A DNA stretch of 64,000 bases, taken from Cyanidioschyzon merolae. Taxonomy: Eukaryota. Below the pieces are notes generated by a model. It did not search any database. It was given only the letters and a program-made list of their open reading frames with translations, and was not told the DNA's origin. Below, piece after piece: positions 1,373 through 61,086 of the stretch. A program made the position numbers and the translations under genes. Location: the NCBI GenBank assembly GCA_000091205.1, contig AP006483.2. One strand, given 5' to 3'. Within the stretch, counting starts at the first letter, position 1. Each line of letters begins with the position of its first letter.

Positions 1373-1445
1373 CAGTGGTGCGGCATCGACGTCGTCGGTC
1401 GCATTATGGTGCGGATGTCCCGAATATGATCTTGAGTACCGCATT

Positions 1446-2492
1446 CGCGGTAGTAGCGAATCGCGGAATATCAGTATCGTTCCTGCAACCATTGCCCAGC
1501 AAATCCTTCCCAGTGTACCAGTACGGCGCTGTCGCCTTGGTGCAATGCTGAACACCACCGTACCCGTGCCAGGCTCCAGGCGGGAATCCAATGCCGTCTA
1601 TCCCGGGGTACGGATTCATTGGCATCGAAAGCCTTGCACATCCCAGCACAATGCCAATAACGTGTACCAAACAATCACCTTAGACGCCCGCTCGAGACAC
1701 AGCCGCTGGACGCCCCGAATGCCCCAGACTCTTCTTCCGAATGGTGATCGAGGTGTCCAGGTCTCGGTTCAGAGCGAAAACACTGGCCGGCACGGCGGCT
1801 ACTGGCATCACACCCTAGCAAGCATCTCACCAGGTCGAGTCCGTCGGTACATGACACTCGATCAGCTTACCGTACACCACAGAGTGTACCGGGCTCCGTT
1901 CTATCCGCATCTTGTCAGCCTGATTCAACGAGAACTCATGCTCGTAATGCAGGTATGTCGCCCTGGAGGCATCCACGGGTGTCTAACAAGAATCAGTCGC
2001 TGCACTTATCGTCCGGTCTCGTCCACGAGACGCGAATGGAGGCCACGCGCACTGCAACCCGTGCACCGTCACAGGCTACGACTCACAGAGGCGTCTTGCT
2101 AGTCACTTGGCTTCGTGCCGCTCACGGAATAAGTTCGTGAATGCACGCTCCTCGCTGCCGTACACGAGACGCAGTCTAGGACTCCAGCACTCTATCATGT
2201 ACGCCTGTCCAGGGATCGTCCGCAGGAGCCTGCGGGACGCTGAGGCACGCGCTGAAGCGCGGAATCCCTCGCATCAGTCTTCGTGTTTTTCGGTGGCATT
2301 CCGGTGAGCGGACAGCGCCTACATCAGGCGCGCTCCACACGGACTCGGTTACTCTTCTGGGTTTCGACTCTCGTTAGAAACGCTTTGGAGCTTGCCTCGA
2401 GTGTGCTGCAATCATTAGCATCGCTACTCGACGCGCCACTGTATTCGGGATCAGCTGGGCAACGTCGTTCGACGTGTTGCCAGCGTACTGCA
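1446..2492. repeat. Copy 1 of a ~1.04-kb dispersed direct repeat (LTR-like or segmental duplication)
   Basis: Near-identical to 7275..8323 (7 aa differences over ~215 codons, ~98-99% nt identity). Identity begins at cgcgg...tagcgaatcgcggaatatcagtatcg and ends at ...ccagcgtactgcatc. No recognisable coding content. Confidence 0.85.
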
Positions 2493-4477
2493 TCTCCTGT
2501 CGTGAACGTTGGCTGCAGGGTCGCAACAGATCTCGATCAAAGTATTCCAGATACATGTGAGCAGCTGGTAGCTCTGGTCCTTCAATTCCGAAAAGCAATT
2601 GCGTGATAGAGGGCGGCATGCCAAGAGAAGCTGGGCAAGCCATCCTCGAATGACAATTTCCACGATTCCCAATGACGTGCGGAATCTCACGTTTTGGAGT
2701 ATCATCCCGGTTCATGTATCGAAGCATGGAGTTCTTGACAACGATTTGAGACTGGTGCTTGCGCACCCGCATGTCGCCGTTAGCGTCATTCCCCGTTGTT
2801 TTTTCGAGATCAGCCTTGTCTCCGTTGTGCGATGGTTTTCTGCTCTTTTCTCGTCTCCGCCTGCTCCTCACTTACTTGGCCAGGCAGCGTGGATGTGGTC
2901 GCTGGACTCTACACCCGACCTGGTTCCTCGCGATTCAGGTAGGCTCGATGGACAGCTGGGCTGATGCGTGCCCTCTGTATATACGTATGAATCTACTATT
3001 CATCAAATACCTTTTTGTCACCGTCTCCGTCGCGAGCAAGCCCAAAGACAGATGCGCATCATGCCGCTTCCCCGCAAGCCCGAGCAGCGGAGCGAGCAAG
3101 CGAGCGAGCGGTCCAAGACTGATCAAGGCAGAGGTCGGCTTGTCGGAGAACGGCTTCCCCATGGGTTTCGTTCCCACGAATGCGAACGACTGGTCCATTG
3201 ATCAGTGAACGTCAAAATGGCGTCACATAACAGCGGAGATGCTATCGACTTGATTGAAACAGGGATAACACGCTGGCTCGAAAAGCAGCTCATCACGAAT
3301 CTCAGCGATGTACTCCACGAGCGCGTTTGTGTGATGAACAGCGACACTGTCTTACAGCGGGACTCAGACGTATAGCGAGCAGCCGCCCCAGAATGTGCAT
3401 CGATGAGCGATGTGGTGTTGAGCGACTCTATCTGTCCAGGGATGTATAGACGAAGACGCGATTGACTCGCTGCTCGGGGATGCTGATGTCGATGCGCTCA
3501 CCTGCCCCTTCTCCACGAACCGTTGTGTGCTCAGTTTTGAGTACACGGATACAGGTCTCATCTCTCTCTGAAATGGACGTCCATCGAGTGAGACGAACAC
3601 CGGCCGTCGACTGGAAAACGCATGCGCGTTTCACTACGAACTCACTCACGTGATGCTCAACAAACGACAGTCTCTCAGGGAAGCACGTCCTTCTCTTTCC
3701 GCAAACGTGTCCCTCTATCACACGTTTGAACGAACGATACGGAAACGTTCATACGCTGGCTCCTTTGGAATTATTTCATGGATAACGGATGGAGTGAAAT
3801 TGATTTACGACAGGACAGTCACGCGTATACAGTTTGGTGCGTTCTGTTTGCGATGCCCGACATTCAACCCAGGGAGTTCGAGACGGGCGCTTCATCCACC
3901 ACCTGCTGACCGTAGAATGACTAACTTGCATCCGCAAGACAATTTTTAGCATCAGCAGCAGTGACAGCATAGAGTTTTTTCTGGCCTTTCCCCAATTCAC
4001 AGGATCCATTAGTTGCGTAGCATACCGTCGAGGAAAAAACAATAACGTCATATAGGGTGTACCGGTATCCACGGACCAGCATTCACTGCTCTGAACATAA
4101 CGCTTTGGACGGGCAGCATTCGTCATGCTAGCGTCCGTCTCACCTTAGATTCCAGCGATAAGCTTTGGCGTTCGTTCCGCGGACTGGAGCCGCTTTCTTC
4201 ACCATGACACCTTTCGGTAAACGCGAACTATTCGACGGGGCCAGTTACTCCGTTCCGCTGCGATATCAGAAAAAAGCAACACGCTCTACAGCGCGCAGGA
4301 TAGTACCTGGCGTCGACAAATCAAGACCTCGAAGCACGCGCACTCGCCACGAAGAGCCAGCAACCTTGATTTATATGGACTGAACAGTACAACGGCACAG
4401 CAAAGCGTGAACGTACCTCGAGCTGTACCCGATGAAGACTACTGCCTAACCGTACGAACCTCTGTAGTTTTTCCGTC

Positions 4478-19628: not shown

Positions 19629-20228
19629 GCCTCACCGACACCGTTCAGAACCAGGCGGAAGCTGCAGAAGCTGGATTCGCCACCGAAAACCCGACGGACG
19701 AAAGACTTGAGTCACGTCGGACCCGTCTCTGGAATAGAGAAAAAAGGTTTTGGCCAGTTTATCGTGACGTTGTCGAGCAGGCGTGCGCTGCGCCTCAGGG
19801 CGTGTGCTCCAGAGGCAACGCCAGTGCCGATTGGTGCCGGCGCACCGTATACCGCACTCAACTGAAGCGTGTTCCACACAAAGGTGTGTGGAAGTCGATG
19901 CTTTTTTCGTTGTATGTAGCAGACGCTATCGCAGGTCGTTCATTAGACGTGATAAAAAAATCTAAGGGAATGGTATGGGGGTGCTATGCGGAAATCCCGG
20001 AAGGCTTTCATTGCCGGGTTGAACAAAACTGGAAAGCCGTGCCGAGCATAGAGGAACGGGAAAGGACGATGCAGCAGAAGCAATCGCGCGAGGCCGGACG
20101 TTGAAAAGGATCTCGAAAGACGACAGTACGACGGGATGGTGGTGAAAGCCTCTTTTCTTGGCCATAGCTAGTATCCCTACAAAAAAAAGTTACGAGAAAC
20201 GATCAGAAACCTTGTCGAGTCGTATTCA

Positions 20229-20783
20229 ATGAGTATTATTGAGGCTTCTTCGGGACTGGTGCATATGGCGAAGGAGATGTACGACAATGTGACGGACATT
20301 CGAAGAGTCAAGATTCCGGACGAGTTTTTCGACAAGACCTTTATTCGTCACCTTGTGCTTGGTACAGGGGATGCGCGGGGTGAAAATGAGCGGGTGCACG
20401 TCCTCCACGAAAACTTTGCAGAATTCCGCTTCGAGGGTAATCGATACAGGGGTGACGCGGATGCTTACATATACGGGGCGATGAAGTATCTCACGAATCT
20501 GAAGAACCATTTGACAATGAACGTCGAACGTTTCATGATACGCCCCGTGTTTGCACTTTACGCGGGCATCTCTCGCAAAGGAATATGGGCAATTATCAAT
20601 GGCTTTACAAACAATCCCCAGCATGAAGATGAGGTTGAATTCGTCGACAAGAAGGCGTCACACAGGAGAAGGAATGAAGCTTCTGTAATCCGTGCGCCTA
20701 CTAAAGAGCACCGCGCAGAATTGGGACTGGCGAATCCAGCAGAAAAGATATCAGAGTTGAAAACAGATACGGAAAGATACTAA
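20229..20783 (+). CDS. Fanzor/TnpB-like nuclease, segment 1 (N-terminal, putative WED/REC-like region)
   Basis: ATG at 20229, 184 codons, ends at TAA 20781-20783. The next segment is in a different frame that opens at 20855. The join could be a short intron (for example GTAATC at 20685 to AAG at 20866) or a frameshift. Confidence 0.45.
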   Translation: MSIIEASSGLVHMAKEMYDNVTDIRRVKIPDEFFDKTFIRHLVLGTGDARGENERVHVLHENFAEFRFEGNRYRGDADAYIYGAMKYLTNLKNHLTMNVERFMIRPVFALYAGISRKGIWAIINGFTNNPQHEDEVEFVDKKASHRRRNEASVIRAPTKEHRAELGLANPAEKISELKTDTERY

Positions 20784-20866
20784 TATCTCATCCTGCGGTA
20801 TTTCGTGTTTTTGGACCGCGAGCTCGAACGCAAGGCGGAGATGATGCTAAGTGAGGAAAAAATGAA

Positions 20867-21646
20867 GTGCGGGAGAGACGGAAGGCTTTCCGAATGGGGG
20901 AGCGCTCCAACATCGTTCCGTTGTGCAACATCAAGTCACATTTTGTGCGTATTGATTCCGGCGTCCTTTACGGCATCATGAAGGGGATCTGTCCGGGGTT
21001 CGATGTAAGGAAGACAGAGTTCTCCGGTGAAACCCAGGAGACGTACTGGAAGAATATCTTCGATATCAAACGTCTCAAAGTGAGCAAGAAAAAGAAATTC
21101 ACTGGGATGATAGAAACTGATGGACTAGCCATATGTGTACACTATCGGCGGTTCAAGACAGATCGGCATGTTCCGTCTTCGGCTTTGCCCGAGACGAAGC
21201 ATGAAGATGAGAAGGAGGAGGATCCTGCGATGCAGAACGTGCAGAAGAACGACTTTTTCGTTGGCGCGGACCCCGGGAACACGAACATCGTAACCATCGC
21301 AGTACGCAGGCGTGCGGAAGATGGTACTGATGGTACCTTGCGTCGGAAAGAAATGCGTCTATTGAGATTCTCTAGAGCGAGATACGATCGAGAATGGGGA
21401 ATCATGAATGCGAGGAGGAAAATCGAGACTTGGAATGCAGGAGTGAAAGAGCACCTGGAAGCTATGAGCGAAGTGACGAGCCGCGAAGCAGACTTGAAAG
21501 CTTTTCGGGAGTCCATGGAAGTTCGCGTTGCGCATTGGGAGGCGCTGTGGGCGGCGGAGTATACAAAGCCCCGGTGGGCTCGTTTGCGAATGAATTTGTA
21601 TTTTGGGAAACAGCGTGCATTCGCGAATTTTTTTTCAATGAGTTGA
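20867..21646 (+). CDS. Fanzor/TnpB-like nuclease, segment 2 (RuvC-I)
   Basis: Contains [21 protein letters not shown] (RuvC-I Asp). It overlaps segment 3 in another frame. A T8 homopolymer at 21628..21635 is a candidate frameshift point. Confidence 0.55.
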
Positions 21647-22130
21647 GCGCCTTGAAGGAGGATGAAAGTCAGAGGCTCCTAGTAGCATACGGAGCAGGGC
21701 GATGGAAGATCCAAAAAGAAACTATGCCAGCTCCAACGACGAGAACATTCAAAGAGTGCGCAAGGCGCTTCGTTACGATACCTGTAGATGAGTTCCGAAT
21801 GTCCTACACACACCATGAACTGGGATGTACACTTCAGAACGTCGAGATGGAAAAGTGCCAGCGGAGCCCTGAGGAGGATATAGCAAAATATGGACCGCTG
21901 GCGGAAGAGCAAATGGAAAGGAGAGCGAAAGCTCGAGGACTACTTGCATTAGTAAGTACAACCAACGATGGCAAGAAACGGATGGAGTTTGTGAATCGAG
22001 ACTTGAACGCCGCGATCAATATACGGGGATGGGCGGTGATGGAGCATAAACCTCCAGACAGGACAAGAGTGAACTTTATCGGACAATCACTTCAAGTCGA
22101 ACTATATGAGAAAAAGTTGAAACCAGTAGT
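21394..22130 (+). CDS. Fanzor/TnpB-like nuclease, segment 3 (RuvC-II, zinc finger, RuvC-III); ancestral stop at 22128-22130
   Basis: Contains LLVAYGAGRW ... FVTIPVDEFRMSYTHHELGCTLQNVEMEKCQ ... KKRMEFVNRDLNAAINIRGWAV. Comparison with copy B (aaaaagccaagccgatag) shows a 1-nt insertion in A (aaaaagttgaaaccagtag). This shifts the ancestral TAG out of frame, so the track ORF reads through to 22365. Confidence 0.6.
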
Positions 22131-23055
22131 CGTTGGCCGGTCCAAAAAACTGGGAGGCGTCTGCACGTCACTTGGAGACTTCTTGTCTAGGGCAGGCTTC
22201 TCGCCACTATTGTACCACTGGCAGCAGCGTTTGTCTTTTGAAAGGCGTTTGTTGTTGGAGGTGGGCGTGAACGAAGGCCACTGTGAAAAGTCTGCGTCAA
22301 GTCGCTTTTTCTTTCGTACTCCCAGGCCTTCTGCAGCTGAGCAAACTACTGAACCGAGCGCTTAGGGCGACTCGGGTTTCTGTGAGAGGCAGCCCGCGGT
22401 TGGTATCATGGTGCGGCACACGCCTCGGCGAGGTTCGGGTGTGGGCACTGCAGCCCCAGCGGTTGCGTCCACATCCAGAGCAAAGCACGGACCTGTTGCT
22501 GCAACAGCGGTGCCACAGCAGGCATCCACACCCCCGTGCGATGTCTCTGGAGAGGACCATGCGTCCCAGCCAGGCGCCTCAGCGGAGACGCTTGAGGTGC
22601 CCAGCGACTTTGGGTGCGACGACTTGCGCCCTGCAGCAAGCGCAACCCGGGATTCGGGCAAGCACCTGGAGCCGGACGCCGAACGGTTTGGCTCTTTGGA
22701 ACAGGTGCGTCAGGAAGCCGAAGCAGGAACGGAACTGACGCGCTCTGCACTGGGTCCTCGCCAAGTGCGGAAGCGAGTGGTGCAGCGTCGGTCCGCGACA
22801 GGCGCTGCAGAGCGAGCCCCAGTGAGTACGCACCCGCCGTCTGATGCGGCTCCAAGGAGCGGCACCTCTGTCGGAGGAACCAACACAGGACAGAGCGGGC
22901 AGGATGCTTGGCACCCAGCGGGTGCTTCTGGACCGGATGCCCCGGAAACCCCAGCTGCGTTCATCACCAGTGCTGCTGTTCCCGAAAGCACCGGTGCTGA
23001 TCTTCGTTGGACGCCTGCTCCCTCATCGGAGCATCTCACCAGAGGCGCTGTCGTC

Positions 23056-33719: not shown

Positions 33720-33995
33720 ATCGCCAGCGTCGCCGCCGCCAACGCCATCGCTGCAGGCAGCCGCAAGGCATTGAGATTGTGATCGTTTCCTGGAGCGCGC
33801 CTGCGTTGCTGCAGTGCAGATATTTCTGATGCGCCGCCGCCGCCGCCAACGCCATCGCTGCAGGCAGCCGCAAGGCATTGAGATTGTGATCGTTTCCTGG
33901 AGCGCGCCTGCGTTGCTGCAGTGCAGATATTTCTGATGCGTCGTCGCCGCCGCCAACGCCATCGCTGCAGGCAGCCGCCAATCCGCCTTCAATCG
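33720..33995. repeat. Minisatellite, 107-bp unit x ~2.6
   Basis: gccatcgctgcaggcagccgcaaggcattgagattgtgatcgtttcctggagcgcgcctgcgttgctgcagtgcagatatttctgatg recurs at 33744, 33851 and 33958. Confidence 0.85.
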
Positions 33996-35526
33996 ATTTT
34001 TCGTTGGATATAAGGTTTCCATCGTGGACCACGGATGCCGGATGGCGAGTTGACTACGGGCATTCGCGAAAGCGTCCATGATTCTTTACTCTGCGTCCAT
34101 TTTCCATGATCCGTACTTCCTCCTGAGTGTACGAATCGTTTTGGTGATTCCATCGTGCGCTGAGCGTCTGCTCTGCTGCACCCGCAATGGCGCCTATATC
34201 CTAGTGCGGATACAGCTCGAAGACAGGACGAGATGGTCATATGAATGAGGGCGCCAGCTCGAGGCATGATTCATTCAATACGGGATCGGAATTCACCATC
34301 TTTCTGGGAGCCTGCGTACTGCGCAGACAGACCAAGTGCGTGCGGCAGTGCGAAGCGATACGCTAGGAGCAAACGCTACCAGCGCGACACCGAAATGCAC
34401 TCCAGCCACTCCTAGTCGCAGAACAAAATGCGCTATGAACAAACTGTTCAGATGTTGCAACAGGACCGGGTACTACGGGATACCTTGCTTCAGTTTTAAG
34501 CGCCCGGTGCCGTACTTGGCGATTATGAGCGTCTTCCAGGCGATCTCGCCGACAAGTACACTGTGCGCTGTACACGCAAGATCACGCTGTTCCATGCGAT
34601 AGCGCTGCTGTGGAACGCGATGTCGTCGATGATGAAACATCTACCAGAATGAGAATCCAGATCAGAAAAGCATTCGAGAGATTTTTGGCTGAGTGTATGT
34701 TCCATTCGTGCGAAGCGGTGACGCTCTCTCTATAAGAAGCGATCACTGCACCGACTCCAGTCTGAATGCAAGACCCTCTCCCTTGCAATCGGAAAGACGG
34801 GGAATGCCCTGCCATTCAATGATGCTGCTGGTGCTGCTCCTATTGAATGCCGCTCCGTCGATGGTTTTACAAAGACACACGAGGATTCGGCTGCGGAACG
34901 GGTTGATTATTCGGCGCAACAAGTTTCATAAACTACCGGCATACGCTAATGAAAAAGCCTTCAAGGCATGATGAAAATTTTCTACTCGTATATCCAGCAG
35001 AACGTATCGTGGCGCCCACGAGTTTCCTTCCAACAGAAAGATTCAAGGCTCGAAGCATGCGTGATTCGGACACGCTGACTGTAAGGAAAGGCAACGAATG
35101 GAGGCCTGTACTTATACATTGGATGGTGATATCCGTCATTATATGAAACCCCTTGTTCGAGAGCGCCACGAGTCATCTTGACGCGGGTGCCGTCACGCAT
35201 TCCAACGGCAATACGTCAACGTATCCACTCCAAAAGACCACCGAGTATGCCGAGACTGCGCATAAATCCGTATGTTCTTGTTGCTGAGCTTTGAATGGCT
35301 AAATAGCGCATCTGAAAAGCGTTCTGAAAAATTCTGAAAGGCACGAACAGAGCAAGCACTTCTACATCCATTCTAACCTGACACGAGCGTAGCGCCCAGA
35401 CGCCAGCCAGCGTTGTCAAGTTCCACGATAATCCGGCTCGTTCACAGGCGTTATCGGGCGCCATCATGGGACCAAGGTGGGCCGGTCCCGTTGCGCTCTT
35501 TTCTCGACAGTGGCCCCAGCTTCGAT

Positions 35527-37529: not shown

Positions 37530-37849
37530 GATTTTCGTTTTTCTTGACAACACAAATATCCGTTCGTGAATGAATTAGGGAAAAGCGTTTCGCGGTATCA
37601 TAGCGGGAGATGCTACCGCTCACTCAAGAACAGTGCCCCAGCGCATCCCAAATTAGATCCTCCGCTTGGTGCACCGACACCGCACACGCCGCGTTGGAGG
37701 GTAATCGCAGGCGGCACTGTTCATTGTTGTTCAACTTAATTGTGTTCCGCCCCCAGGTGATTGATATCAAATGGCATTTCGCGGCGCATAGCGGATGCGC
37801 TCATCCTTCGCTCATTCTCAAACCAACGAATTCCAAGCTACAGGTACAG

Positions 37850-38323
37850 ACATGGACGTCAGAGATCCCGCGGAGCCGTCATCGCCGCGTGCCAGAGAAA
37901 TCCGTGCAAAATACGCTTTTCATCGACTATCGAGCGTCGAAGAGGAAGAAGAACAAGAAGAGGTGAGGTAGGCGAGAAAAGATGCTTGCCCGACGGGACG
38001 ATAACGAGACTGTATCGGCCCAGAGGGCACGTGTTCGAGGACTTGTCGCGTCGGTGAGTTCAGGCAGCGGCAATGCACGCAATGAGTTCGTGAACCGGGA
38101 CTTTAGCGCCGCTATGCAGAGTAGACGATTTGCGGTGCTGAAGATGAGATTCGAGGAGCTGACGCCATCGAACTTTATGGGGCAGCCTCTCTGGCTCGAA
38201 GTGTGCCTGGATAAAAAGCCAAGCCGATAGCTAGCGGCCGGTCGAAAAATGCCAGGAGGCGTCTTTGAGCGGGAGTGCACATACACTCTATGGTTGAGGG
38301 ACATTTTTTTGCTTCATTGACAT
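37850..38323 (+). mobile_element. Fanzor-family 3'-terminal remnant, copy B (Tc1-like junction plus RuvC-III end plus right-end tail)
   Basis: Encodes ...SGSGNARNEFVNRDFSAAMQ... (RuvC-III remnant) ending at TAG 38228-38230. Then ggaggcgtct ... ttcattgacatg (38323), a right end shared with copy D. Upstream ~37700-37900 is homologous at DNA level to the transposase-tail region of copy D (gatcccgcggagccgtcatcgcc). Confidence 0.6.
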
Positions 38324-41300
38324 GTGGAGCAATCGTGTTCACATGACCGGTGATTCGCTGCAGACGGGTTCAGGAAACGACGGGGCAGCAGGAGAAATGC
38401 ATCGCCAATCGGATGCGGTGGATCGCGGCACCCTTCTGGTTGACAGACCGTTTACGGAAATCAGGGATGCCCTGTTGTACACCATGGGTAAACGCAGTGC
38501 CGTGATCGGTGGAACACCTGTGCGAGGACGCATTTTTGCTATTTATGGATGGCTTTTTTTGCGGATAGTCAATAAAAGGAAGGTATTCTATTGGTTGGAA
38601 AAAGTTCGCTGAAAGACTTGATGCCGTCACTGCGAGTCTGCAAAAAAAGGTCTTTTTTGTCCAAGTCAGTTCTTCTACGCTCAGCAAGCGGATGAAGCGC
38701 ATTTCTCGTTGTCCATATTGTAAAGGCCATGCACCCTAGACGGAAGTTGTTAAACCGCATCAATACGACTGTCTTCGGGTATATGCATTCTACTCCATAG
38801 ATTGTTTGACGAATGCTGATACAGAAGCCAAAGATTCTGAACTTTCCGAAACAATGACACGAATGGTGAAGAAGAAACGGGCGCGGAGAAAGAAAAAAGC
38901 GCGCTTCTCTGGGAGATCGTCGGGCGTTGAATGATACACGGCAGGTTCTATCATGTAACGTGACCGCCTATAGCAGGAGCGACGCGTATTCGTCTCGTTC
39001 GATGGGACATCATTCGGGAGAAATCGCAGTCTTCTATGTAGATGCTTAAAGAGAGGCAATCTGCTGCTCGCTAATATGAGAGAAGCGAGCGTGACGAAAC
39101 CATGACCCCGAACGGCAATCATACCGAGTGGGCGCCCAGCATTCTCTCAACGGACAGAGTTGTTGAACGCCTCCGGCTTTGTTGAAGCGCTCTTCATGGC
39201 ATCTCCTTCCAGCACTCTAAAGTCCTGCTATAAAAGAAAACCACATTCCATCAAGAAGAAACGGTGAAAGCGTATGCAGCTGAAACTGGCTTTGATCTGC
39301 TCTTCGTGTCAGCGTATTAGACTTGCTTCCGTCTAGTCAAAGACGTCTCCTCTGTTGCCAAACGCCATTTCTATGTCCAGCGCACGATAGACGGCTCGTT
39401 CGCATCCGTGACACCAAAGTTCTGTGGCAAGTCGCTCGCTGTTACCTTCACCAGTCCTGAACTACTGTATTGCCCCCGAGCCCGTACACGACATCGAGCG
39501 TAGAGGTGCGCTTCGGTCTGTGCGCGTGATCGCGACGCAGAACGGAACAAAAAACCCTGCTGGAATACGCAGTGCATTCGTAGAGGAGGCGCGCTTCAGT
39601 GCAATCGATCATCCAGATCGTCTGAGAATCTAAGAATCAAAGAGATGCGGAGTGTAGCGATCACAAGCGTGACATCCCACCATGTAAAGAACACAGCGAC
39701 AAACGAGATGAGGTAGAAACCATCCGACAAAGGAGAGGCAGATCCCGCAGAAAAACAACGAGGACGAGGAGGGACAGCGATGAAAACCTGTCGGAGCAAA
39801 ATAGTCAGTTTGAAACCACTGTCAAGGTTTCGCTCCGAAAAATGCAGCGTGGGGATTCTGCAAAACAAACCGAGATGCAGAGCGCCATGATGGATAGTAT
39901 ATAGCTTCGTACTCGATCAAGGCTCGCCTAGCTTGCCTCACCATGAAGCGTCATCTCGAGGAACGATTTCTAGACGTTCCGGATGCAGGGCTCCCATCTG
40001 TCCATATTCCCCTGGAAGTTCTCGATCAGACCTTCGTGCGCTAACACAACTGGTGCTCGGCACAGAAGCGGCAGTACGGCCGGGATCGGAGGATCAGCGA
40101 TTTCGGCACGCGCTTCTCAGAATACCATGACGAGTTGCCATGCCGTATCGGCGATGGGCACAATCCACTGCGCAGTTGCCGAAAATCATCAAAGCAATCT
40201 CGAAAACCGTATGCGAGATAATCAAGAGGGTTTCATAGAAAGCACGCAGTGGGCGTTGCAGCCTCACCAGACTGACCCAAACATGAGGAACTTCATGAAA
40301 GCGGCTCTCCAGTTCGGAGATTACACGGGCGTCAGAATGGCTCACGCGAAGGAGCTTTGGCGGCAGTGCATGATACTGCGCTTTGGATCACCATCGGTTT
40401 CGGTTGTGCGGAGGCAAGAAGCTTGGATTCGCCAATTTGTTCAGCGAGCTGGAAAAGGAAACGATCGAGAAAACACGGCGCGAGCTCGTGGTAGCCTATG
40501 GAGCTGGACCTGCGGTACCAGGCGCGCGCCGCACCCCTGGCCCTTCGACGACAGCAAGCAGCAAGTGCAGGCATCGATTGTAACCGATTCTCATCCTTGG
40601 ATTCAGAAGGATCGAACCGCATCACGAGCACGGTCACACGCTGGAACAGGTAGAGAAAATGAACATGAAACGGATCCAGATGCACGAAACGGTAAACACT
40701 AAGATGGCTGAATATCGATTGGTGAGGCAATCGAGATTTCCTGGCTTCGTATGGTGTGATTCCACCAGCAGCGGAGCGCGCGAGCTCGCCATGCACAACC
40801 TCGTGAACGCCTCGATCCACGTCCGGAAATGTCGTGTGTTTCCGGAGCGCCCAGCAGCATTGCATCGAGCGAACTTTCAAGGAAATCACTGAGTATTCAG
40901 TGTGGACGTAATGCTGAACCGCTGAAGAGTCTCGATGAAAAACCAGCGGCCGTCAGAGGTGCATTGGATGCGCATCTAGAGCAATGCAATGGACTGGTAC
41001 GCGTTCGTAATGCAGAAAGGAATGGATTCCCGATATATACAACGAGAAAGGTTCTCTCGGACAATTGGTGATCGCTCACGGTAGTCCATTACTCGAAATT
41101 CCTCTGTGGCTGCTTTCATTGTCTGCAGAGAGGGATCGCATCGCACGTAAGATCAAGAAATTATAGACGAAGCATCCGGGGCCTACTGCCAGCGAATCTT
41201 CATATTCAAATGAAAGTCCATGGAATGGTGGCAGCGGCACTGGCGGTGTTAGATTTATGGAGACTGGAGGACATAAGGCGCAACCATGAAGGCTCCCTCG

Positions 41301-41860: not shown

Positions 41861-43189
41861 TCAACGACGACGAGACTCGGAGCGTTTTCCCGCTGTTACA
41901 TGCGAAAGCGCTTCAGCATTACTATCGAGCTTGCTTAGTATCGAGGCAGCAACAGCGTCAATGCGTGCGAGAATTTCAGTTTTCAAGGCTTGCAGGTCTG
42001 CCGGTGTTACCGCCGCAACCGACACGGGCGCAGACTTTGGCACCGGGCGTGAGCTCCGACCAGCACCAGCACCAGCACCAGAACCGGGCGCACCACTCAC
42101 TTCCTCGCCAGCGACCAGTCCGGTATGCACCTGTCTTCGTCGACCGGCTGCACCGCTTGGAGCAGCCCCCGTTGGATGAGAGGTTGCGCTCTGGGTGGTC
42201 TGGGCTTCGCCACTGGCCTGGAGTGGTCCGGCACCAGCAATCGTACCCGCTGCTGTCTGATGTTTCCCGTCGGTGCCCGTTCGCCCATGCGCAGGCCCGT
42301 TCGGTTTCGGAACACCGACACGAGCTGGTCGCCAGCGTGTGCCGCCACGCTCGAGGTTGAGCATCTCACTGGACTGCGTCTCTGGGAAAAACACCTCATA
42401 GAGTCCAGTGCCCTCATCCATACGCAGAATCGTGCACCCCATCCAGGCACGCAGTGGCGCGTAGAAGACCTCGATATCCGTATTCGGGTGTAGGTGTGGT
42501 CGAAGAAGACGTTCGCGCTGCTGAATATGAACTTCAAGTTCTTTTAGCCTCGCGTCCGCAGCGGCAGCTTGCTCCTCGTAGGCAGCAACTTCGGCGCGAT
42601 ATTCCAGCGCCCTCTCCTCGGCTGCCTCTAGAAGAAGCTCGGCGTGCTGACACACCCAGTTCTCCGCTGGATCCTGGTTGTACGCTAGTGTGTTGTCACG
42701 CATGAGACGCACGTCGGCGAGGAAGGCATCCAAACTCGCGTACATGTTTTTGCGAGCCCGTTCCCGGAAGTGGTTCAGAAAAACAGGCTGTTTGATCCTC
42801 CGCCGATAGTCATTGGTGGGCGGAATCCGCGTAAAGTCCACCCCGGTATTCGCCGGACGCGACAAGAGCGTCGCATTCGGCGGCCTCTGCTCCACCGGAA
42901 GTGACCGCGGCACGCGTCGAATGACCAAGCGCACTGGGTCATTGAGCTTCGCCGTGGCCTCTTGGTCGATGTACGCCAGCTCCTCGTTCCGAAGGGCTTC
43001 CTCGATGGCCAGTATCACCCGATTAATACGCTCGCGAGCTTCATCTCGTCGTTTCCGTTGTGCAGCTACCTCTTCGGCCTCAAGCGCCGTTATTTTCGTG
43101 AGCAAGTCGAGGTACTCTTCGTCGAGCCGTTTCCGTTTTTCAACAAAGTCCTCCAGCTTGGTCGTTGGCGTCACCTCGGCAAGTACCAT
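41861..43189 (-). CDS. Bromodomain-containing protein (probable) with coiled-coil N-terminus and Ala/Gly/Pro-rich C-terminus
   Basis: ATG at 43189. The segment IKQPVFLNHFRERARKNMYASLDAFLADVRLMRDNTLAYNQDPAENWVCQHAELL follows the bromodomain helix B-C pattern (Y..L..F..D..LM..N...YN.....V), with the ZA-loop region upstream. Confidence 0.45.
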   Translation of the reverse strand: MVLAEVTPTTKLEDFVEKRKRLDEEYLDLLTKITALEAEEVAAQRKRRDEARERINRVILAIEEALRNEELAYIDQEATAKLNDPVRLVIRRVPRSLPVEQRPPNATLLSRPANTGVDFTRIPPTNDYRRRIKQPVFLNHFRERARKNMYASLDAFLADVRLMRDNTLAYNQDPAENWVCQHAELLLEAAEERALEYRAEVAAYEEQAAAADARLKELEVHIQQRERLLRPHLHPNTDIEVFYAPLRAWMGCTILRMDEGTGLYEVFFPETQSSEMLNLERGGTRWRPARVGVPKPNGPAHGRTGTDGKHQTAAGTIAGAGPLQASGEAQTTQSATSHPTGAAPSGAAGRRRQVHTGLVAGEEVSGAPGSGAGAGAGRSSRPVPKSAPVSVAAVTPADLQALKTEILARIDAVAASILSKLDSNAEALSHVTAGKRSESRRR

Positions 43190-43289: not shown

Positions 43290-43836
43290 GCGCTGCGCCC
43301 CCGACGCAATTCTCAAAATCGCTGTGCGGAATTCGGAGCGCAGTGCCCCCGATGCACAGCCCTGAATCCCTGGGGGAATTCTCAAAATCGCTGTGCGGAA
43401 TTCGGAGCGCTGTGCCCCCGATGCACAGCCCTGAATCACTGGGGGGGAATTCTCAAAATCGCTGTGCGGAATTCGGAGCGCTGCGAACCCGATGCACCGC
43501 CCTGAATCACTGGGGGGAATTCTCAAAATCGCTGTGCGGAATTCGGAGCGCTGCGAACCCGATGCACAGCCCTGAATCCCTGGGGGGAATTCTCAAAATC
43601 GCTGTGCGGAATTCGGAGCGCTGCGAACCCGATGCACAGCCCTGAATCCCTGGGGGAATTCTCAAAATCGCTGTGCGGAATTCGGAGCGCTGTGCCCCCG
43701 ATGCACAGCCCTGAATCCCTGGGGGGAATTCTCAAAATCGCTGTGCGGAATTCGGAGCGCTGCGAACCCGATGCACAGCCCTGAATCCCTGGGGGGAATT
43801 CTCAAAATCGCTGTGCGGAATTCGGAGCGCTGTGAA
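43290..43836. repeat. Satellite array, ~62-bp unit x ~9, EcoRI site (gaattc) twice per unit
   Basis: gaattctcaaaatcgctgtgcggaattcggagcgctg(tg/cg)(cccc/aacc)cgatgcacagccctgaatc(c/a)ctgggggg is repeated head-to-tail with point variants. Confidence 0.9.
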
Positions 43837-44089
43837 TGGTATCCCTCGTAGAGATGCTATGGATGCTATTCTTAAGAGTGATGGTATGAATGTTGACGAT
43901 GATTCTGCTTCCCGTGTCGCTCGCAAACGTTCGTGCGATTGCAGCAGCGCGTTCCATGTGCACAGCTACGTATCCGGTTGGAGATTGTGCGAGACATTGC
44001 AGGAGTCTCACGTGCGTGCATGTCGTCAGGCTTGATGACGAATCGTTTACCATGGAACATTGCTGCATCTTACGGACGTTCAATGCAAT

Positions 44090-45480
44090 GCTGTCCAATT
44101 CCCGCTGAGTGTAGTCGACTGCTTTTTCGCAGCGTTGAGCAGGAGATCGAAACCGCTGTAGGATGTACCCGATAGATCGTAGCCGAATCGCTTGTCGGCT
44201 ATATTTTCCCTACTGGAGCGTACAAGCAGGATTGCATTCATCATTCAGGAAGGCCATACCGCAGTACTCAGATGATTGAGGAACAATGAAACAAAGAAGT
44301 ATCTGCGCTCTACGTCAGAAACTGATTTTGTCAAAGACTGTTTGCTGTCCATGGGACAAGTAACAACGGTTGATCATCTTACGGGACGCAAAAGCGACGA
44401 TCGAAGCAACCACGCATGTCACGGTTTCGCAGAAGCTGGCGCGTGCGGACCCGAAAACCCTGGGATACAATCGCCAAAAAAGTTCTAGTTCACGCGCGGC
44501 CATCTTCCAACGAAATCTCAACGACAGCATTCCTGGAACTTTGCGACCGGTGTGAAGCACAGGAGCATCGGTTAGTTCTTCCAGTTGATGACGCTTGATT
44601 TGGCCGAAACAGTCAGAGCGTATGTGGGTAATCGCGGGGCGCGGAGCCCGTTATATGAAAGATCGGACTCGAAAAGACGGACATCATCATGTGTTCTAGC
44701 TGCAGAGGATCTTTTTGGCGGCCTCAGTTTCGCAATTGGAGAGGACTCGTACACCACCGACCACTTCGTCGATTCAACGAAGACGTTTCCCTGGAATCTG
44801 GCGACGTCCTTCTATTGGACAACGTTTCATTTGACCATTCCCATTGGGTTCGAGCTTTTGCCGATCCTATCGGGGTAGAGGAGCTTTTCATTCCTCCGTA
44901 ATCTCCGTGGCTCAACCAGATTGAAAGAGTTTTTTCTAGTCCGAAACATAATGATCGCTCCACTGAGCGTTTTGCCGAAGCGTTCAGCTCACGATGTCAA
45001 ACCAGGGCGCATGTCGTCATTGTTGCACAGGTGCTTCTACCTCCTGCAATGACTTCATCTATGGGCATAAAGGAGCCAGTTCATTCAAAAAAAATTCAGG
45101 GATGAGCTTCGGTATACACTAGAGAAGGTCGAGATGGAGAGAGGGCAGCGGAGCGCTTCGGCGACAGGAACGCATTCAGAGCCGACGGAGTAGCAAATGG
45201 TAAAAAAGGCACGAGTCCGAGGAATCCTTGCATCGGTGACTTCAACCAGCGGCAAACAACGCATGGAATTCGTGTACCGAGACGTCAACGCTGCTATCTG
45301 TACCAGAAGATGCGTGGTTCTGAACACGAGCTCAGAAGAGATGACGCGATCGCACTTCGCGGTGCAGCTTGCAAGGCTCGAAGCGTACAATCGAAAACTG
45401 AAGCCGGTAGCATTCCGCCGGTCCGCAGAGGCGAGAAGACGACTGTGAGTGAGTACCTATATTGACCCTCCATGGACTTC
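44090..45480 (+). mobile_element. Composite degenerate element, copy C: Tc1/mariner-type (DDE_3) transposase remnant fused to Fanzor 3'-terminal fragment
   Basis: The 44585..44940 region encodes ...SGDVLLLDNVSFDHSHWVRAFADPIGVEELFIPP*SPWLNQIERVF (the DNxxxH ... LPPYSP.LNPIE signature of Tc1/mariner/IS630 transposases, with stop and frameshift). The 45125..45448 region encodes EVEMERGQ...GKQRMEFVYRDVNAAIC (Fanzor zinc-finger/RuvC-III remnant, Cys to Gly). DNA is homologous to copy D throughout. Confidence 0.65.
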
Positions 45481-47012
45481 AAACATTTTTCGTTGTACTC
45501 TACATAGCAGAAGCCGCTGGATGCTCGAATGCTGTAGGCCGCGGGGCACGAGGCTGTAGATCCACTGTCAAAATGTTCTCGTTGCCCGAATGCCAGATCC
45601 GACTTCCAGCCCAGCACCACGGTTAGATTCAAGGAGATTTCAGACAATTGATCGTTGCACGACTACCAGACCAGACATTCTATCGGGTATCACGGTCAGA
45701 TTCAGGGATTTTCCAGATACAGAGCCTACCGTGGGTATCTACTGTGGCATTGGAAGCTCCGCTTTGAATGCCATACGGAGACAGCACGGCTTCACAGGAA
45801 GCGCGTCGGGTACTCGAATGTTCATCGCCAAGGCACGCAGTACTCGGGTACGCTACACGCCAGTTTCGCATCAGGCTGTGAGGGCGGCTTCAGAGCGCCC
45901 GACGTGCTTATCATATAGACCTCAATACAGCGTCCAGTTGACGCTCAGGGTGCAGTAACTAGGGTATGTGTGTGTTATGCTTCCCGCTCTGCCAGACACG
46001 ACGTGTCCAGCCCGAACGTCCCAGTTGACCGTGGCGTTCGTGCTGTTGAGAACAAGGCATGGATGCACTTGGGCCACGCCTGGGCCACCTCGAAGCAGTC
46101 CCTTTACCAGTGCGCCCGGGGCACGCAGTTGGTCCCAGCTGCACGTCACCGCCAGCGCCAGAGGCTTTGGAAACTTTTACTGGTTCGTAACGCAATGCTG
46201 CATATCAACAGTTCTCCCGTATGTTCTGGCGACTTTGGGTGCAAGATGCAAAGCCACAAGCCCACAATGACGGATGCACGAGCTGCGAATATGCATCGAT
46301 ACATCTGAACATCCTCGAGTGCGTTCACCATGGCCGCATGACCCTCATCGCGAATGCTGAAACGGCATGGCAGCGTTTGCCACAGAGTTCAGCAGCAGTC
46401 TGGGACGATAGCTTTTGCGCTGGCACTTATGCCATCACGACGCCAAGGTGTGCAAGGCCCCGAAAATGCCGGCGGTTCTCCGCGCCACTAGGAATCCGTT
46501 TCTCGACCGCATGACGAGAAAGAGAATCCGAAAACGAGCAAAAGAGGCGGCTGTACCTGCGCCCTCTGGTCACTGTCGTTTATGGTTAGAGGCATGCAAT
46601 TTCGATCGCGTTCGGGGTGTTTCGGCACCGGTCCGGCCCTGAGCAAAACCGATGCCAGCTGTCTGCAGCAACTGCCCATCATGGTATTCAGGTCTGCATA
46701 ACGAAAAACATATCGTTCGCATAGAAACCTGCGTAGCATACCAGGCTCTAACGCAACTCCCGATACGGTATGGATCTGCATAGCTGCTATTCGACCTGGA
46801 CGGCACTTGCGCAATATTCCCCACGGTAACGAACCGAAGCGCGCAAGACCGCAGCGATCAATGTGAAGAGGCCATGCACCGGGCTATCGCGTTTCCAGGC
46901 ATTTTCCACGTTCACACGTTGCAGCACAACCTGATTCGTCTCGAAATCGAATGATCGTGTCCGGTGCTCCAAGCAATCAGCATGCTGTAGTGCACAGTTC
47001 GTACAAAGCGGA

Positions 47013-48131: not shown

Positions 48132-49521
48132 GTACCCCGCAGCGCAGACGACGGTGAGCGGTGTGTGTCCCGGTGATCGAGTCCCAGCGTGGCGTTCCAG
48201 CCACTCCAGCCTCAAACCAGAGATAAAGCGTTCAACACACCGGTTAACTCGGTCGATAACAGTGTTTCAGGGCAGGGTTACGTAATCCCGTTACCCTGGC
48301 ACCGACGCCGCGGCGCTCATGGACGCAGGTGCTTGGATGCCGAGCACGCGGCGAATGTAGTTGCGATTTCGCTTCCGACAACAAAAACGCTTACATGGAC
48401 CATGGATCCAAACTTGTGGGATGTATAGGTATTTGCTTTCTCGAGAGCATCCATCATGCTGCTGTGCTTTACCTCCAGGTTCCACTACTGATAGTTCCTC
48501 TCGGATGTACTGGTCGTTTCGTGCGTTCTATCGTGCGCCGGGCGCCTGCCTTGCTGCACCCGCAACCGCAGCGACACCGTTGGTACGAATGCATCAACGA
48601 GGTCGAACGGCATTCTCATATCACTGAGGGCGTCTGATCGACGCGTTTTTCTGTACGACACGAAATCGGATTTCATCATCATTCTGGGGGCCTGCAAGCT
48701 GCGCAGACAGGTACATTGCCTGCGACAGCGCAAAGCGGTCTACTAGGAGTCCAGTATGACCACCACGACACCTGGATGCAGCCTGAATAACCTCAGTCCC
48801 AGAATAAACTGCGTTTCGGACGAGTTGCTGCTCTGAACTCACCACGGCACTCGCTACTGCTGAGGCAGATAATGCGCGAGTCGAGCAGACTCGTCCGACG
48901 TACTGGACCTGCCTCCTAGGAGGTGAATTTTCGATAATATGGAAACCTTTTCACACTTTTCAACGTTTACCGCAGAGGAGTAAAGAAGCTGTTGTCTCGT
49001 TGCTAGTTCGTGCCTAGATTCTAGGCTTTTTTTCTGTTTATAGAGTGCGCCGCGTGCACGCACTGCAATCTCGCACGCAATCCGCACAGCGACGTGCGCG
49101 GCAGCGGGCGCTTGTGAGAACGCACTCATAGCCTTGGCGCTCGCCCGCTCTACGCTTATACTGCTCGTGTGGAGTCGTGCTCCGCACTCGCTCAGTGCAG
49201 GTAGGAAGTGGTCGTGTGTGTACACTCACAACGCACTTGTGACCTGTGCGAGCGCTGTACATAACGCGCTTGGTGTTTGTCAAGCGCACAGGAGTTGGCG
49301 GAGACCGGCATCGAGTTCAACACTGCGCTACGCGCTTCTGCGCTGGCTACGACAGAACGCGGGTGCGGCACCAGGAAACACACGTGCGTTCTAGAGAGGT
49401 ACCCGTTTCCTGTACACTGTAAAAGCGTACGTGACGGCGCTTTGGTCCTGGGCGGGTGGTGTTGCAAAGTGCTTTCACGCGTCGTTTAAACCGTCTGCCA
49501 AGAGTAACAGACGCAAAGACG

Positions 49522-57795: not shown

Positions 57796-58149
57796 TTCGC
57801 GATCCGTACGGAAACGAGTGCATCATTTCTAAGAACGTGATGAAAGGCTGCAGGATGCCCCGCGTGAGCATAGTTGCGAGTCTTCGCACGTCCGTTCGTA
57901 GCAGAGGCGAATCATAAACGAGAATGCACGGTACCAGATGAACTCGATGAAGGACAGGGTGCACGGGTACGGAGTATCTGCAGCTTTCGCTGGTACAGAG
58001 ACGCACGCGCTTTAAGTGGCATCGGATGCGCCAGGTCGTTGACCCTAAGCTTGCCTCGTTGGCGTTGCGCAACAAGGCAGTGGCCGCCGCTGCTACGCAC
58101 TGCGTTACGTTCCTTGCTGTACGCCATGCTTATAGTCTTTCGTTTCAGT

Positions 58150-59588
58150 CTTTTCCCCTTTTCTGGATGTAATCGAGTGCTTTTTTTTGTAGTGCATAGC
58201 AGGAGATCGCCATCAAGATGCAATGTACTCTATAGATCGTAGATGGATTGCCTGAAGGATACATGCTTTACTGAATCGTGCAAGGAGGACTGCATACCTC
58301 CTTAAAATGAGTCGTATCATAGTACTCAGATGGTTGAGGAACTCTGAAAGAAACAAGTATATGCTCTCGCGACAGAAACCCGATATTCCTGCCGGCTGAT
58401 TGCGGTAAACGGTAGTGAAGCGGTTCCTTGAACATCTTACAAGCAGCAAAAAGCGACCATTGAGGTCACGATAAGCGTCTCTGGTCTTGTCCAGCTCGTT
58501 CGAGTGGTCCTCAAATCACTGGAATACAGTTGCAAAAAAGTCCAGTATCACGTACGGTCATCTTCCAGTGAAGTCGCAACGACCGCGTTCCTGAAATGCA
58601 GCGATCCATACGAAGCACAGGGACGTCGCCTTGTTTTTTTCGGTTGACGATCGTTGCTTCGGGCACACTGGTCGGAACGTATATGGGTACTTGCGTCTGC
58701 GGAGCTCGTTCCATGTGCAATCGAACCCGTAGAGCGCGATATCATCATCTGTTCGAGCTGCAGTGGATTCATTTGACGGCTTCAGTTTCGCTCACAAAGA
58801 AGGTTCATACAACAGCACCAACCACGTTGTCGAATCATTGAAGACTTTTCCCTTGAAGTCTGGCATCGACCTTCTATTCGACAACGTCGCATTTCAGCAT
58901 GCAGCTTGCTTCAGATCTTTTGCAGATTATGTTGGGGTAGAGCTGCTGTTCATCCGTCCGTACTCCCGGTGGTTCAGTTCCGTCGAAAGAGGGTTTTCGA
59001 TCGCGAGACACAATGATCGATTCACTCGGCGAATTAATGATAACCGATGGGCATACAGAGTTCCGTCGATTCGGTGAAATAAGAAATCCCAGGGAAAGGT
59101 ATGGGCGTGCAAGTCGGGGATCCCGGCGGGCGGTCATCGCCGGCTGCCCAAGAAAAAAAACGAAAATATCCCGTTCTCACCGACCATCGAGCGAAGAAGA
59201 GCAACTGTCGAAGAAGACGACGCAAAAAAAGGGAGACAGATGAGAGAACGTGTTTCCCCGACGGGTCGAGGACGAGACTGTAGTAGCACAGGAGGCATGA
59301 ATTCGGGAAATCCTTGGAACAGTGCGTCCACTCAGCAGTAATGCACGCAAAGAGCTCATGAACTCAGACCGCAAAGCGCTTTCAACATCAGACAATGTTT
59401 GGTGCTGAAGACAAGACCGGAGGAGCTGATGCGAGCCAACTTCGTGCGGTAGCTTCTCAATGTCGAAATGTACAAGGAGAAACAAAAACCGACGAGAGGT
59501 TGCCGGTCGAAAACGGCTAGGAGGCGTCTGCGTCTGGGCTTCCATGCACTCTATATTATTGTGAAACGTTGTTTGTTTCATTGACATG
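58150..59588 (+). mobile_element. Composite degenerate element, copy D: Tc1/mariner-type transposase remnant fused to Fanzor 3'-terminal fragment with right end
   Basis: The 58763..59077 region encodes DLLFDNVAFQHAACFRSFADYVGVELLFIRPYSRWFSSVERGF (DDE_3 C-terminal signature). The 59300-59590 region is homologous to copy B (cagtaatgcacgcaa..., ggaggcgtct at 59521, ending ttcattgacatg at 59588). The 5' part is homologous to copy C (atagatcgtag...cagtactcagatg[ag]ttgaggaac). Confidence 0.65.
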
Positions 59589-59657: not shown

Positions 59658-59693
59658 GCACCACCACCACCACCACCACCACCACCACCACCA
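59658..59693. repeat. (CCA)n trinucleotide microsatellite
   Basis: caccaccaccaccaccaccaccaccaccaccat immediately downstream of copy D's right end. Confidence 0.9.
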
Positions 59694-61086
59694 TCAACAT
59701 CACTACCTATCCATCTCTCTGGAGATCACGGGTCATTCGTGCGTTCCACTGGATGCGAAGCTGTGACGCCAATTGTCTCCAAACTTGGTTCGTGCATCTC
59801 TATGGTATACGCGAACGGTTGATGAGTCGGCCTTGAAGTAGTGCATACGGCCTCGAATCTCGTTTGGATTCAGTCCAATAGATTTGCACGAGCATCCGAT
59901 CGAGCGACACGGGATCCACGAAGGCGCGTTTCCCGTCCGGAGCAATGCACGTGGGCATCAGCTCGAACGCTTCGGACGTCGGCATGCGGTGCTGCCTCGT
60001 CTGCAGGGTCCGCTCCAGGTTCTGAAAATGCTGGATACGGCGAACGTCTTGCATCCATTGTCCCGAGATCGCAGACGCATACCAGTCGGTAAAGATTCTT
60101 CCTGGTGCAGCGCATGATGTTGTCCCCTGAAATTCCAGCGGACGCAGAAAACAAACTGGTAACCGGGGAACAGGCATCGCGTTTGTTTTCCACAGCGTCT
60201 GCCACGTTCTACCCGTATCAGAGAGGCGCCCTCGTACATGCGGCTCCATCGAAGCTGACCGATAACATCGCAGCAGGCGAGTCGCACGCTGCACATTCGT
60301 ACTGATCACCCGTTGAATACAGGGTATACACTGCAGCGCATGCACCCTACAAGACACTGGGGCGCTTCAACGTCGACTCAACTGCCGTGGCGTTCCGACT
60401 CGCACATCAGGTCTATGTGTGCGGACGCGGTTACCCATTTCCAAACCTGGACGCTCGGTGGGCATTGGGTCCCGGCCAGCGAGAGCGACAGCATCGGCAA
60501 ACGGGTATGCCCCTGTGTCATCATCCGGTTCTCTGGGCACCCCGCCCCCTGATTAGGATTCTCGGAAATAGAGTGCATCTGAATACGTGTTGGCACGCGT
60601 TTGGTCGATGAAGACGGCTCCGGCTTCACGACGCAAACCTGATGTGTTCCGCAAAGACGAAACCTCGCACACACGAAGGATTGCATGGCGTCGAAGCAGG
60701 TCCAAGTACCGTACCGGTCGACGCCAGAGAAAAAAGCGATGCCATGGCCGAGACTCGTCTCTTTCAGAGCCAAACTTTATGCACGCGTAACGCGCTCACG
60801 ACACTCTAGACGACACGGGGTTTGCTGCGGTGACGCCCGTGCACAGCGCGAATGATGCGTTCAGACGTGAAAGAGTTGCTCCGGCGTTTCCGATTCTTGG
60901 ATCCTCCCGCATGTTTACCAGAAAAAATGCTACCATCCCCCGGGGCTCTACCGAAAGTCGTCCACCCCAAGTTTCTCGCGACTAGGATTGAACACGCTCT
61001 GTGGACGCCTGACGAAAGCACGATCCGGGGCAGCGTTCAGCACAGAGTACGTTGCTTTGTTGGCGAGACTGCTGCCATGGTCTTGT

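Follow-up and report, generated by a model that had tools for sequence, protein, structure and literature searches.

The window analysed here is a stretch of 64,000 nucleotides (nt) from the red alga Cyanidioschyzon merolae (contig AP006483.2 of assembly GCA_000091205.1). It contains two decayed elements, copies C and D, both on the plus strand, in which remnants of a Tc1/mariner-type transposase gene are followed by fragments of a gene for Fanzor1, a TnpB-like RuvC nuclease. The C. merolae genome is represented by this window only, and all copies outside it were taken from metagenome contigs of Cyanidioschyzon-like organisms. The reference sequences for the Fanzor parts, the CMe-1A consensus (3169 bp) and the CMe-1 protein (734 amino acids, aa), were obtained from the supplement of PMC3627910.

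Copy C is a complete 1.4-kb derivative at 44073..45504, with its ends placed by hidden Markov models (HMMs) of the 5' and 3' family termini (nhmmer). It is composed of a 5' inverted repeat, a whole transposase pseudogene, a Fanzor 3' stub and a 3' inverted repeat, and is 79.7% identical to the consensus of 12 distinct copies of its type (positions 46-1411). The 5' terminal inverted repeat (TIR), CGGACGTTCAATGCAATGCTGTCCAAT, lies at 44073..44099 (family consensus TAGTCTTTCAACTCAATTTTGTTCCAT), and the 3' TIR region lies at 45478..45504, where the family consensus ends in GTGAAACGTTTTTCGTTTCACTGACCA. A TA at 44071..44072 has a partner at 45505-45506, and the pair is a putative target-site duplication positioned by the nhmmer end model. 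The transposase pseudogene (44163..45093, plus strand; DDE_3 domain, DD34E type) starts with an ATG at 44163 and the residues MYPIDRSRIA, and is interrupted by several stops and frameshifts; tblastn with the consensus transposase matches 44370-45093. The Fanzor1 3' fragment follows on the same strand at 45098..45448, corresponding to about CMe-1 codons 611-734, with a TGA stop at 45446-45448. Its segment 45102-45357 is 72% identical to CMe-1A 2737-2995 (blastn) and the stub is 50% identical to CMe-1 aa 612-729 (tblastn), retaining only the third RuvC motif (RuvC-III, YRDVNAAIC).

Copy D is a complete 1.5-kb derivative at 58133..59587 (plus strand; ends from the same HMMs), 79% and 76% identical to the consensus of 10 copies of its type, with a TA on the 5' side only (58131-58132). 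Its transposase pseudogene (58223..59041, plus strand; ATG at 58223) is matched by tblastn at 58441-59041; a single stop interrupts the DDE domain, which otherwise stays in one frame, and the final ~50 bp of the open reading frame (ORF) are gone relative to copy C. Two Fanzor stubs follow on the plus strand. The N-terminal one (59093..59250) extends from the region of the start codon to about codon 50; its part 59093-59166 matches CMe-1A 898-968, and it aligns with 19955-20017 of a third element of the window, copy A, and with a fourth, copy B. The C-terminal stub (59345..59542) covers about codons 645-730 and is heavily mutated, with matches to both references: 59352-59531 corresponds to CMe-1A 2904-3084, and the identity to CMe-1 aa 675-730 is 48% (tblastn), the third RuvC motif being mutated beyond recognition. 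The stubs of C and D are 67-72% identical to CMe-1A 2737-3084, the whole set of CMe-1A matches being 67-74% identical. The similarity is limited to CMe-1A 898-968 and 2737-3084 rather than the whole 3169-bp consensus. Copies C and D hold fragments of a Fanzor gene, not Fanzor genes, and neither has a complete RuvC triad.

Copies C (44110-44964) and D (58168-59026) are 68% identical over 872 nt; with an E value of about 5e-75, the similarity is therefore far beyond chance. A preliminary description of this DNA had quoted a Tc1/mariner C-terminal signature disrupted by stops, and both peptides were recovered: LLLDNVSFDHSHWVRAFADPIGVEELFIPP*SPWLNQIERVF in frame +3 of copy C and LLFDNVAFQHAACFRSFADYVGVELLFIRPYSRWFSSVERGF in frame +2 of copy D. 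The DDE_3 profile matches both copies, and the three DNA motifs quoted there also occur in both. The homology of ~1.4 kb that it claimed holds for the ~860-nt transposase part and the final ~250 nt; the middle regions differ because the copies carry different deletions. Its boundaries (44090/45480 and 58150/59588) are replaced by those of the family end models, 44073/45504 and 58133/59587. The 5' region that it described as shared is present in both copies and is the N-terminus of the transposase; the motif ...cagtactcagatggttgaggaac encodes TVLRWLRN of the putative helix-turn-helix. An internally deleted transposase-Fanzor derivative had rightly been proposed, and C and D are in fact two different ones; what was retained of the transposase, however, is not just the tail but the whole gene of ~310 codons.

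Two copies only 14 kb apart on one chromosome might also have arisen by segmental duplication of host DNA. In every copy, however, the homology breaks off abruptly at the same terminal sequences, and no extended homology was seen between the flanks: a bromodomain protein and a HAD hydrolase neighbour copy C, whereas a pyruvate kinase neighbours copy D. The different internal deletions and the C-D identity of only 68% also argue against duplication, whose probability is close to nil.

The transposase can be assigned by its catalytic domain. Pfam DDE_3 scored 40.0 bits for copy C (frame +3; gathering score 28.6 bits), 20.6 bits for copy D (E=4e-4), 72.5 bits for a 265-aa family consensus transposase and 83 bits for an intact relative on contig L077. 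The second D and the E are spaced by 34 residues in both the family consensus and L077. The consensus transposase of ~310 codons reads MYRIDRRRIA...VSHTTVLRWL...SVDETCF...LLLDNVAFH...PPYSPWLNPIE. Its N-terminus (MYRIDRRRIA...VSHTTVLRWL) aligns by eye with MYSFDKRMIC...VSHTTIRRWI of L077, and Pfam HTH_33 gave 16 bits, below the cut-off. A protein search with the reconstructed C/D protein returned six ORF fragments of 147-227 aa, all metagenomic. The contigs of these fragments have the same transposase-Fanzor layout, at loci with unrelated genes.

An alignment of eight copies was used to build the consensus transposase, and a scan of the metagenome contigs with it gave 80 loci. In nearly all of them, a Fanzor C-terminal fragment lies 10-250 bp downstream of the transposase remnant on the same strand. 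After both ends had been located with HMMs and duplicates removed, 27 distinct complete elements with unrelated flanks remained: four of ~0.6 kb, 12 of 1.38-1.46 kb, 10 of 1.49-1.53 kb and one of 4.2 kb. The 12 C-type, 10 D-type and four B-type elements (B-type named after copy B) have class-specific deletion junctions, keep both ends and are dispersed; the copies are about 80% identical to their own class consensus. The family consensus begins with TAGTCTTTCAACTCAATTTTGTTCCA, and the transposase ATG is ~90 bp from the left end. In the family consensus, the Fanzor ATG follows the transposase stop after ~18 bp on the same strand; in C and D, the Fanzor remnant lies about 20 bp downstream of the transposase gene. 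At the C-type junction, the Fanzor ATG is joined through an ATG microhomology to about CMe-1A position 2730 (...GGGATG followed by AGCTGGGGTGTACAC...), leaving approximately codons 611-734; the junction of ATG with AGCTGGGG is common to all C-type copies. In the D-type, approximately Fanzor codons 1-50 are joined to codons 645-734. In the B-type, the 5' ~75 bp connect directly with the final ~35 bp of the transposase ORF, and the D-type Fanzor stub comes next. Every deletion derivative retains at least ~310 bp of the 3' end.

A full-length but decayed parent was found on contig L092 (5796-10008), which runs from the family 5' end through the transposase and the complete Fanzor ORF to the family 3' end. 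Its transposase (5827-6772) is 69% identical to that of copy C, and its Fanzor gene matches CMe-1A 916-2241 (77.5%) and 2245-3084. The Fanzor ORF is broken only by a nested TE-N2_CMe with an inverted partial copy (L092 8155-9005), inserted at CMe-1A position 2241/2245. It is the only full-length copy of the Cyanidioschyzon type that was found, and it carries both the transposase and the whole Fanzor gene.

These data bear on whether the adjacency is a coincidence, in which an old Mariner fossil twice came to lie beside a CMe-1 Fanzor fragment of separate origin. The abundance of CMe-1-type elements, with about 150 copies (PMC3627910), and the presence of at least four more Fanzor-related fragments in the window would make such encounters easier. 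The junctions, however, recur to the nucleotide in 26 other distinct elements whose flanks are unrelated, and both genes occur together in the full-length L092 copy and, within one TIR pair, in intact relatives. Nesting as an account of C and D is thus extremely improbable; the two genes are adjacent as parts of one mobile unit, and chance nesting is excluded.

The intact relatives are located on AT-rich contigs (33-37% G+C) and include a 3455-bp element encoding a 305-aa transposase and a 745-aa Fanzor. Two insertions of it (L077 381-3835 and L074 79-3532) are 99.9% identical with different flanks, and elements of this type have apparently been mobile recently, as judged from these sequences. 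The Fanzor gene begins 30-60 bp past the transposase stop, and the element is bounded by 28-nt TIRs with TA on both sides. The TIRs of L077 are complementary at 75% over 28 nt, and those of L097, also flanked by TA, at 90% over 30 nt. The preliminary description had proposed to test whether a full-length copy elsewhere has transposase and Fanzor within one TIR pair, and the L077/L074 and L097 elements are such cases. A second subfamily, represented by L085 (from 1643) and L087 (from 3733), is 86% identical. The transposases of L096, L097 and L098, from other samples, are 61%, 39% and 34% identical to that of L077, and in each a Fanzor1 homologue starts 45-55 bp downstream of the transposase. 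The two genes diverged in step: the identities between L077 and L096 are 61% for the transposase and 59% for Fanzor, and those between L077 and L097 are 39% and 29%. This parallel divergence supports Fanzor1 as a long-term passenger or partner of Mariner-type elements, not an occasional capture. A profile of CMe-1, L077, L096, L097 and L098 matches the Fanzor structures SpuFz1 from Spizellomyces (8GKH, E=3.3e-13) and GtFz1 from Guillardia (9CER, E=1.5e-5). In IMG/VR, the contigs of L077 and L087 are assigned to the same giant-virus bin (GVMAG-S-1092401-23), and their flanks encode ORFans and a superfamily-1 helicase; scans of giant-virus contigs gave no further carriers beyond these two. The intact relatives could be candidates for testing the benefit of Fanzor to a DDE transposon.

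A TIR search on copies C and D alone gave nothing convincing, and the element ends became visible because many copies were aligned. Among 39 distinct 5' termini, positions 5-27 are conserved at 60-95%; among 29 distinct 3' termini, a CTGA core is conserved at 62-97%. Homology also links the TIRs of the decayed family with those of the intact elements L077 and L097. TA is present on both sides of L077, L074, L097 and copy C of the window. The TIRs and TA duplications anticipated earlier were therefore found in part: TIRs exist in the family and its relatives and copy C has TA on both sides, but TA is unclear in the decayed family. The 5' flanks of the 39 distinct elements have T at position -1 in 59% and a weak GCT further upstream, with nothing comparable on the 3' side. 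A preference for a target or for a nuclease motif could explain this asymmetry, as could an error in the boundaries. In the 5' flanks of L077, L074, L087 and L085, GT precedes the TA in four of four.

We conclude, with a probability of roughly 90%, that copies C and D are dead, internally deleted members of a Tc1/mariner transposon family that once carried a transposase together with Fanzor1. The observed anatomy, the family membership, the copy structure, the full-length parent and the intact relatives carry this conclusion. Several observations weigh against it. The consensus TIR is weak, with only 14 of 27 positions complementary between the 5' and 3' ends (p about 0.001-0.002). TA was found at the 5' flank in 11 of the 27 decayed elements and at the 3' flank in four, so that a TA duplication is unsupported on the 3' side in this set. 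An intact C. merolae transposase of the family was not found, the protein search having yielded the six fragments and no NCBI-annotated protein; past mobility in C. merolae is therefore read from copy structure alone. Moreover, structure tests of the retained 3' part gave no evidence of a guide RNA.

A different question is how the C-type and D-type elements spread. They might have been autonomous Mariners without Fanzor, whose transposase was intact while they multiplied and in which the Fanzor stub was a dispensable remnant. The entire transposase gene was kept from ATG to stop, the 12-copy C-type consensus is open for ~190 codons from the ATG, and the DDE domain of copy D stays in frame throughout, apart from one stop. 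The 1.4-kb and 1.5-kb class consensuses, however, share the same two frameshifts in the catalytic domain, which copy D lacks, and these indicate that the masters were already defective; near indels, a class consensus built from 10-12 decayed copies is uncertain. Autonomous spread is thus rather unlikely. Because the majority consensus carries the two frameshifts, most copies probably derived from already defective masters that were mobilised in trans, a conclusion held with moderate confidence.

The following history very probably accounts for C and D. The autonomous ancestor was ~3.2 kb long, with imperfect TIRs of ~27 nt and a ~310-aa DD34E transposase starting ~90 bp from the left end. A Fanzor1 gene of ~730 aa followed ~18 bp after the transposase stop on the same strand, extending almost to the right end. 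By analogy with Tc1/mariner elements, it would have moved by cut and paste into TA; by analogy with TnpB and Fanzor systems, Fanzor with a 3'-encoded guide RNA might have cut the vacated or empty sites, so that the element was copied back. Internal deletions removed most of Fanzor, giving the C-type and D-type, and other derivatives lost the transposase, giving the 0.6-kb B-type and the Fanzor-only CMe-1A, including copy A. Each derivative was then copied to many loci and decayed to ~80% identity with its consensus.

Guide RNAs of characterised Fanzor and TnpB systems are encoded at the 3' end of the element. The ~310-bp 3' segment retained here might likewise encode a Fanzor guide RNA; the C-, D- and B-type elements could then have been recognised and homed by Fanzor provided in trans by full-length copies, and the 5' bias (T at -1, and GT before TA in the four intact copies) would be the target-adjacent motif of the nuclease, not the TA target of the transposase. 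If so, they would be a eukaryotic counterpart of satellite elements that carry only a guide RNA. This idea appears doubtful. RNAalifold predicted no structure for 28 distinct 3' ends (the retained 3' 260 nt). The consensus hairpins GGGTA/TACCC and GTGAAAC/GTTTCAC showed no covariation, with 67.4% of cells paired against 68.5% in shuffles. The 3' ends of the intact relatives gave modest folding z values of -2.07 and -1.83. The universal retention of the 3' segment might also point to host co-option of the retained pieces, for example as a regulatory or non-coding RNA locus. Co-option is very improbable: the ~20% divergence from the consensus is neutral-like, as for CMe-1A, no consensus RNA structure was found, the two hairpins show no covariation, and there is no intact ORF. 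All C. merolae copies are non-functional, and no function is expected of C and D, which are inert fossils.

The architecture of a Mariner element carrying Fanzor1 has been known since 2013, when PUl-1, PUl-2, PUl-4 and PGv-1 were described as Mariner elements containing Fanzor1 with or without a transposase (PMC3627910). The general statement of the preliminary description, that Fanzor1 genes ride in DNA transposons including Mariner/Tc1, agrees with that work. PUl-1 and PUl-2 (Pythium ultimum) and PGv-1 (Phaeocystis globosa virus) have the same gene order and strand, transposase then Fanzor1, sizes of about 3.1-3.8 kb, TIRs of 24-33 bp and TA duplications (PMC3627910). Their TIR core GAGAATGTCC resembles AGAATGTTCC of L077. 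The identity of the PUl-1 transposase is low, 28% to the C. merolae consensus (E=1.5e-11) and 25% to L077 (E=3e-22). Unlike these elements, the present family has a red-algal host, all of its C. merolae copies are dead, and C and D lost most of Fanzor but kept the transposase. PUl-4 encodes Fanzor1 only and has Mariner TIRs with TA duplications; copy A, CMe-1A and the B-type correspond to it in having lost the transposase but kept the Mariner end. Unlike PUl-4, copy B also lost most of Fanzor. The bacterial IS200/IS605 and IS607 elements are likewise two-gene units of a transposase and a TnpB-family RuvC nuclease, of which Fanzor is the eukaryotic homologue. They combine TnpA (a Y1 or serine recombinase) with TnpB and have a 3' guide (omega) RNA and hairpin ends, whereas the present family has a DDE transposase of the Tc1/mariner type and inverted-repeat ends. 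A search of one literature library revealed no paper linking the C. merolae Fanzor with a Mariner transposase; Repbase lay outside that search. What is new here is the red-alga host lineage and the set of deletion derivatives.

CMe-1A was described in 2013 as having no TIRs, no transposase and an unknown classification, with copies ~80% identical to the consensus (PMC3627910). It belongs to the same Fanzor lineage as C and D and is of similar age (~80% to consensus); C and D differ in having the transposase and in lacking the TE-N2_CMe 5' part. CMe-1A 787-862 internally corresponds to the family 5' inverted repeat with adjoining sequence (nhmmer E=2.7e-8), after which come the last transposase ORF codons and the Fanzor ATG. 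CMe-1A therefore has the appearance of a Mariner-Fanzor transposon of this family that lost its transposase and is preceded by TE-N2_CMe. In contrast to the 2013 description (PMC3627910), an origin from a Tc1/mariner element with transposase and Fanzor1 would give a classification, lacking until now, to the sole Fanzor family reported from red algae. An equivalence between the CMe-1A 3' end and the family 3' TIR was also considered, since the two are alike by eye. The local alignment score of 20 fell within shuffles (mean 14.8, max 31), and the HMM of 28 termini matches only to position 3092; the equivalence is unproven, and the final ~80 bp of CMe-1A have no significant similarity to the family 3' end.

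Copy A is a Fanzor-only element of the CMe-1A family without a transposase, at 19850..22247 on the plus strand, with the same 5' inverted repeat. Its segment 20021-22247 is 85% identical to CMe-1A 955-3169, and two frameshifts distribute the Fanzor gene over three tblastn frames. The inverted repeat lies within CMe-1A 795-909, to which the upstream part 19858-19978 aligns. CMe-1A 1-786 has no equivalent in copy A, which starts with the inverted repeat at ~19850 and has no TE-N2_CMe upstream. The RuvC motif NRD[LF]NAAINI and a motif ending in [MT]S are present in both copy A and CMe-1. In precomputed annotation, Pfam PF26935 (DUF8286) was assigned to the Fanzor1 ORFs of L002 (1-736, window about 20893-21628) and L097 (1336-3309), so DUF8286 may be a Fanzor1 domain; our own Pfam scan of the L002 and L097 Fanzor1 proteins returned no family.

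Copy B (37724..38323, plus strand) is a 0.6-kb derivative without the transposase body, bounded by the 5' end HMM at 37724-37795 and the 3' end HMM at 38106-38322. It consists of the ~75-bp 5' inverted repeat region, the last ~35 bp of the transposase ORF, the D-type Fanzor stub and the 3' end, and it aligns to D 59083-59588. The preliminary description had regarded it as an older and more diverged version of the junction in C and D; being 82% identical to the 0.6-kb consensus of four copies, it is instead a different derivative of similar age. The B-type breakpoints of the transposase deletion are those of CMe-1A and copy A, and the Fanzor-internal deletion is that of the D-type. This suggests that the B-type arose by recombination between derivatives rather than by two independent identical deletions.

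Older fossils were also detected in the window. One has the same gene order on the plus strand at 38584..40886, with weak transposase remnants at 38584-39368 and Fanzor aa 536-700 at 40395-40886; the tblastn E values were 1e-4 with the consensus transposase, 0.057 with the L077 transposase and 2e-18 with CMe-1. A possible and weak one lies on the minus strand at 1668..3946, with transposase remnants at 3946-3217 and Fanzor aa 600-702 at 1979-1668 (tblastn E=0.083, 0.012 and 6e-4). An old, weak fossil of Fanzor aa 600-681 only was matched by tblastn at 7564-7809 on the minus strand. Elements similar to TE-N2_CMe lie at 34027-34467 (CMe-1A 22-460, 72%) and 48384-49012 (CMe-1A 8-619, 77%), with no Fanzor attached.

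The window belongs to nuclear chromosome 1 of C. merolae strain 10D and is gene-dense and almost intron-free. Four of its long ORFs agree at every residue with annotated proteins of that strain, among them BAM78739, a lysophosphatidic acid acyltransferase (17958-19628), and CYME_CMA025C, a bromodomain protein (41861-43189). A 70-bp tandem repeat (7.6 copies, 95% identical) at 43308-43836 lies ~235 bp 5' of copy C and has no relation to it. Other tandem arrays occupy 4498-5060 (134-bp unit, 4.2 copies) and 33731-33978 (107-bp unit, 2.3 copies), the latter adjoining a TE-N2_CMe-like element. A (CAC)n microsatellite lies at 59660-59695, ~70 bp 3' of copy D.

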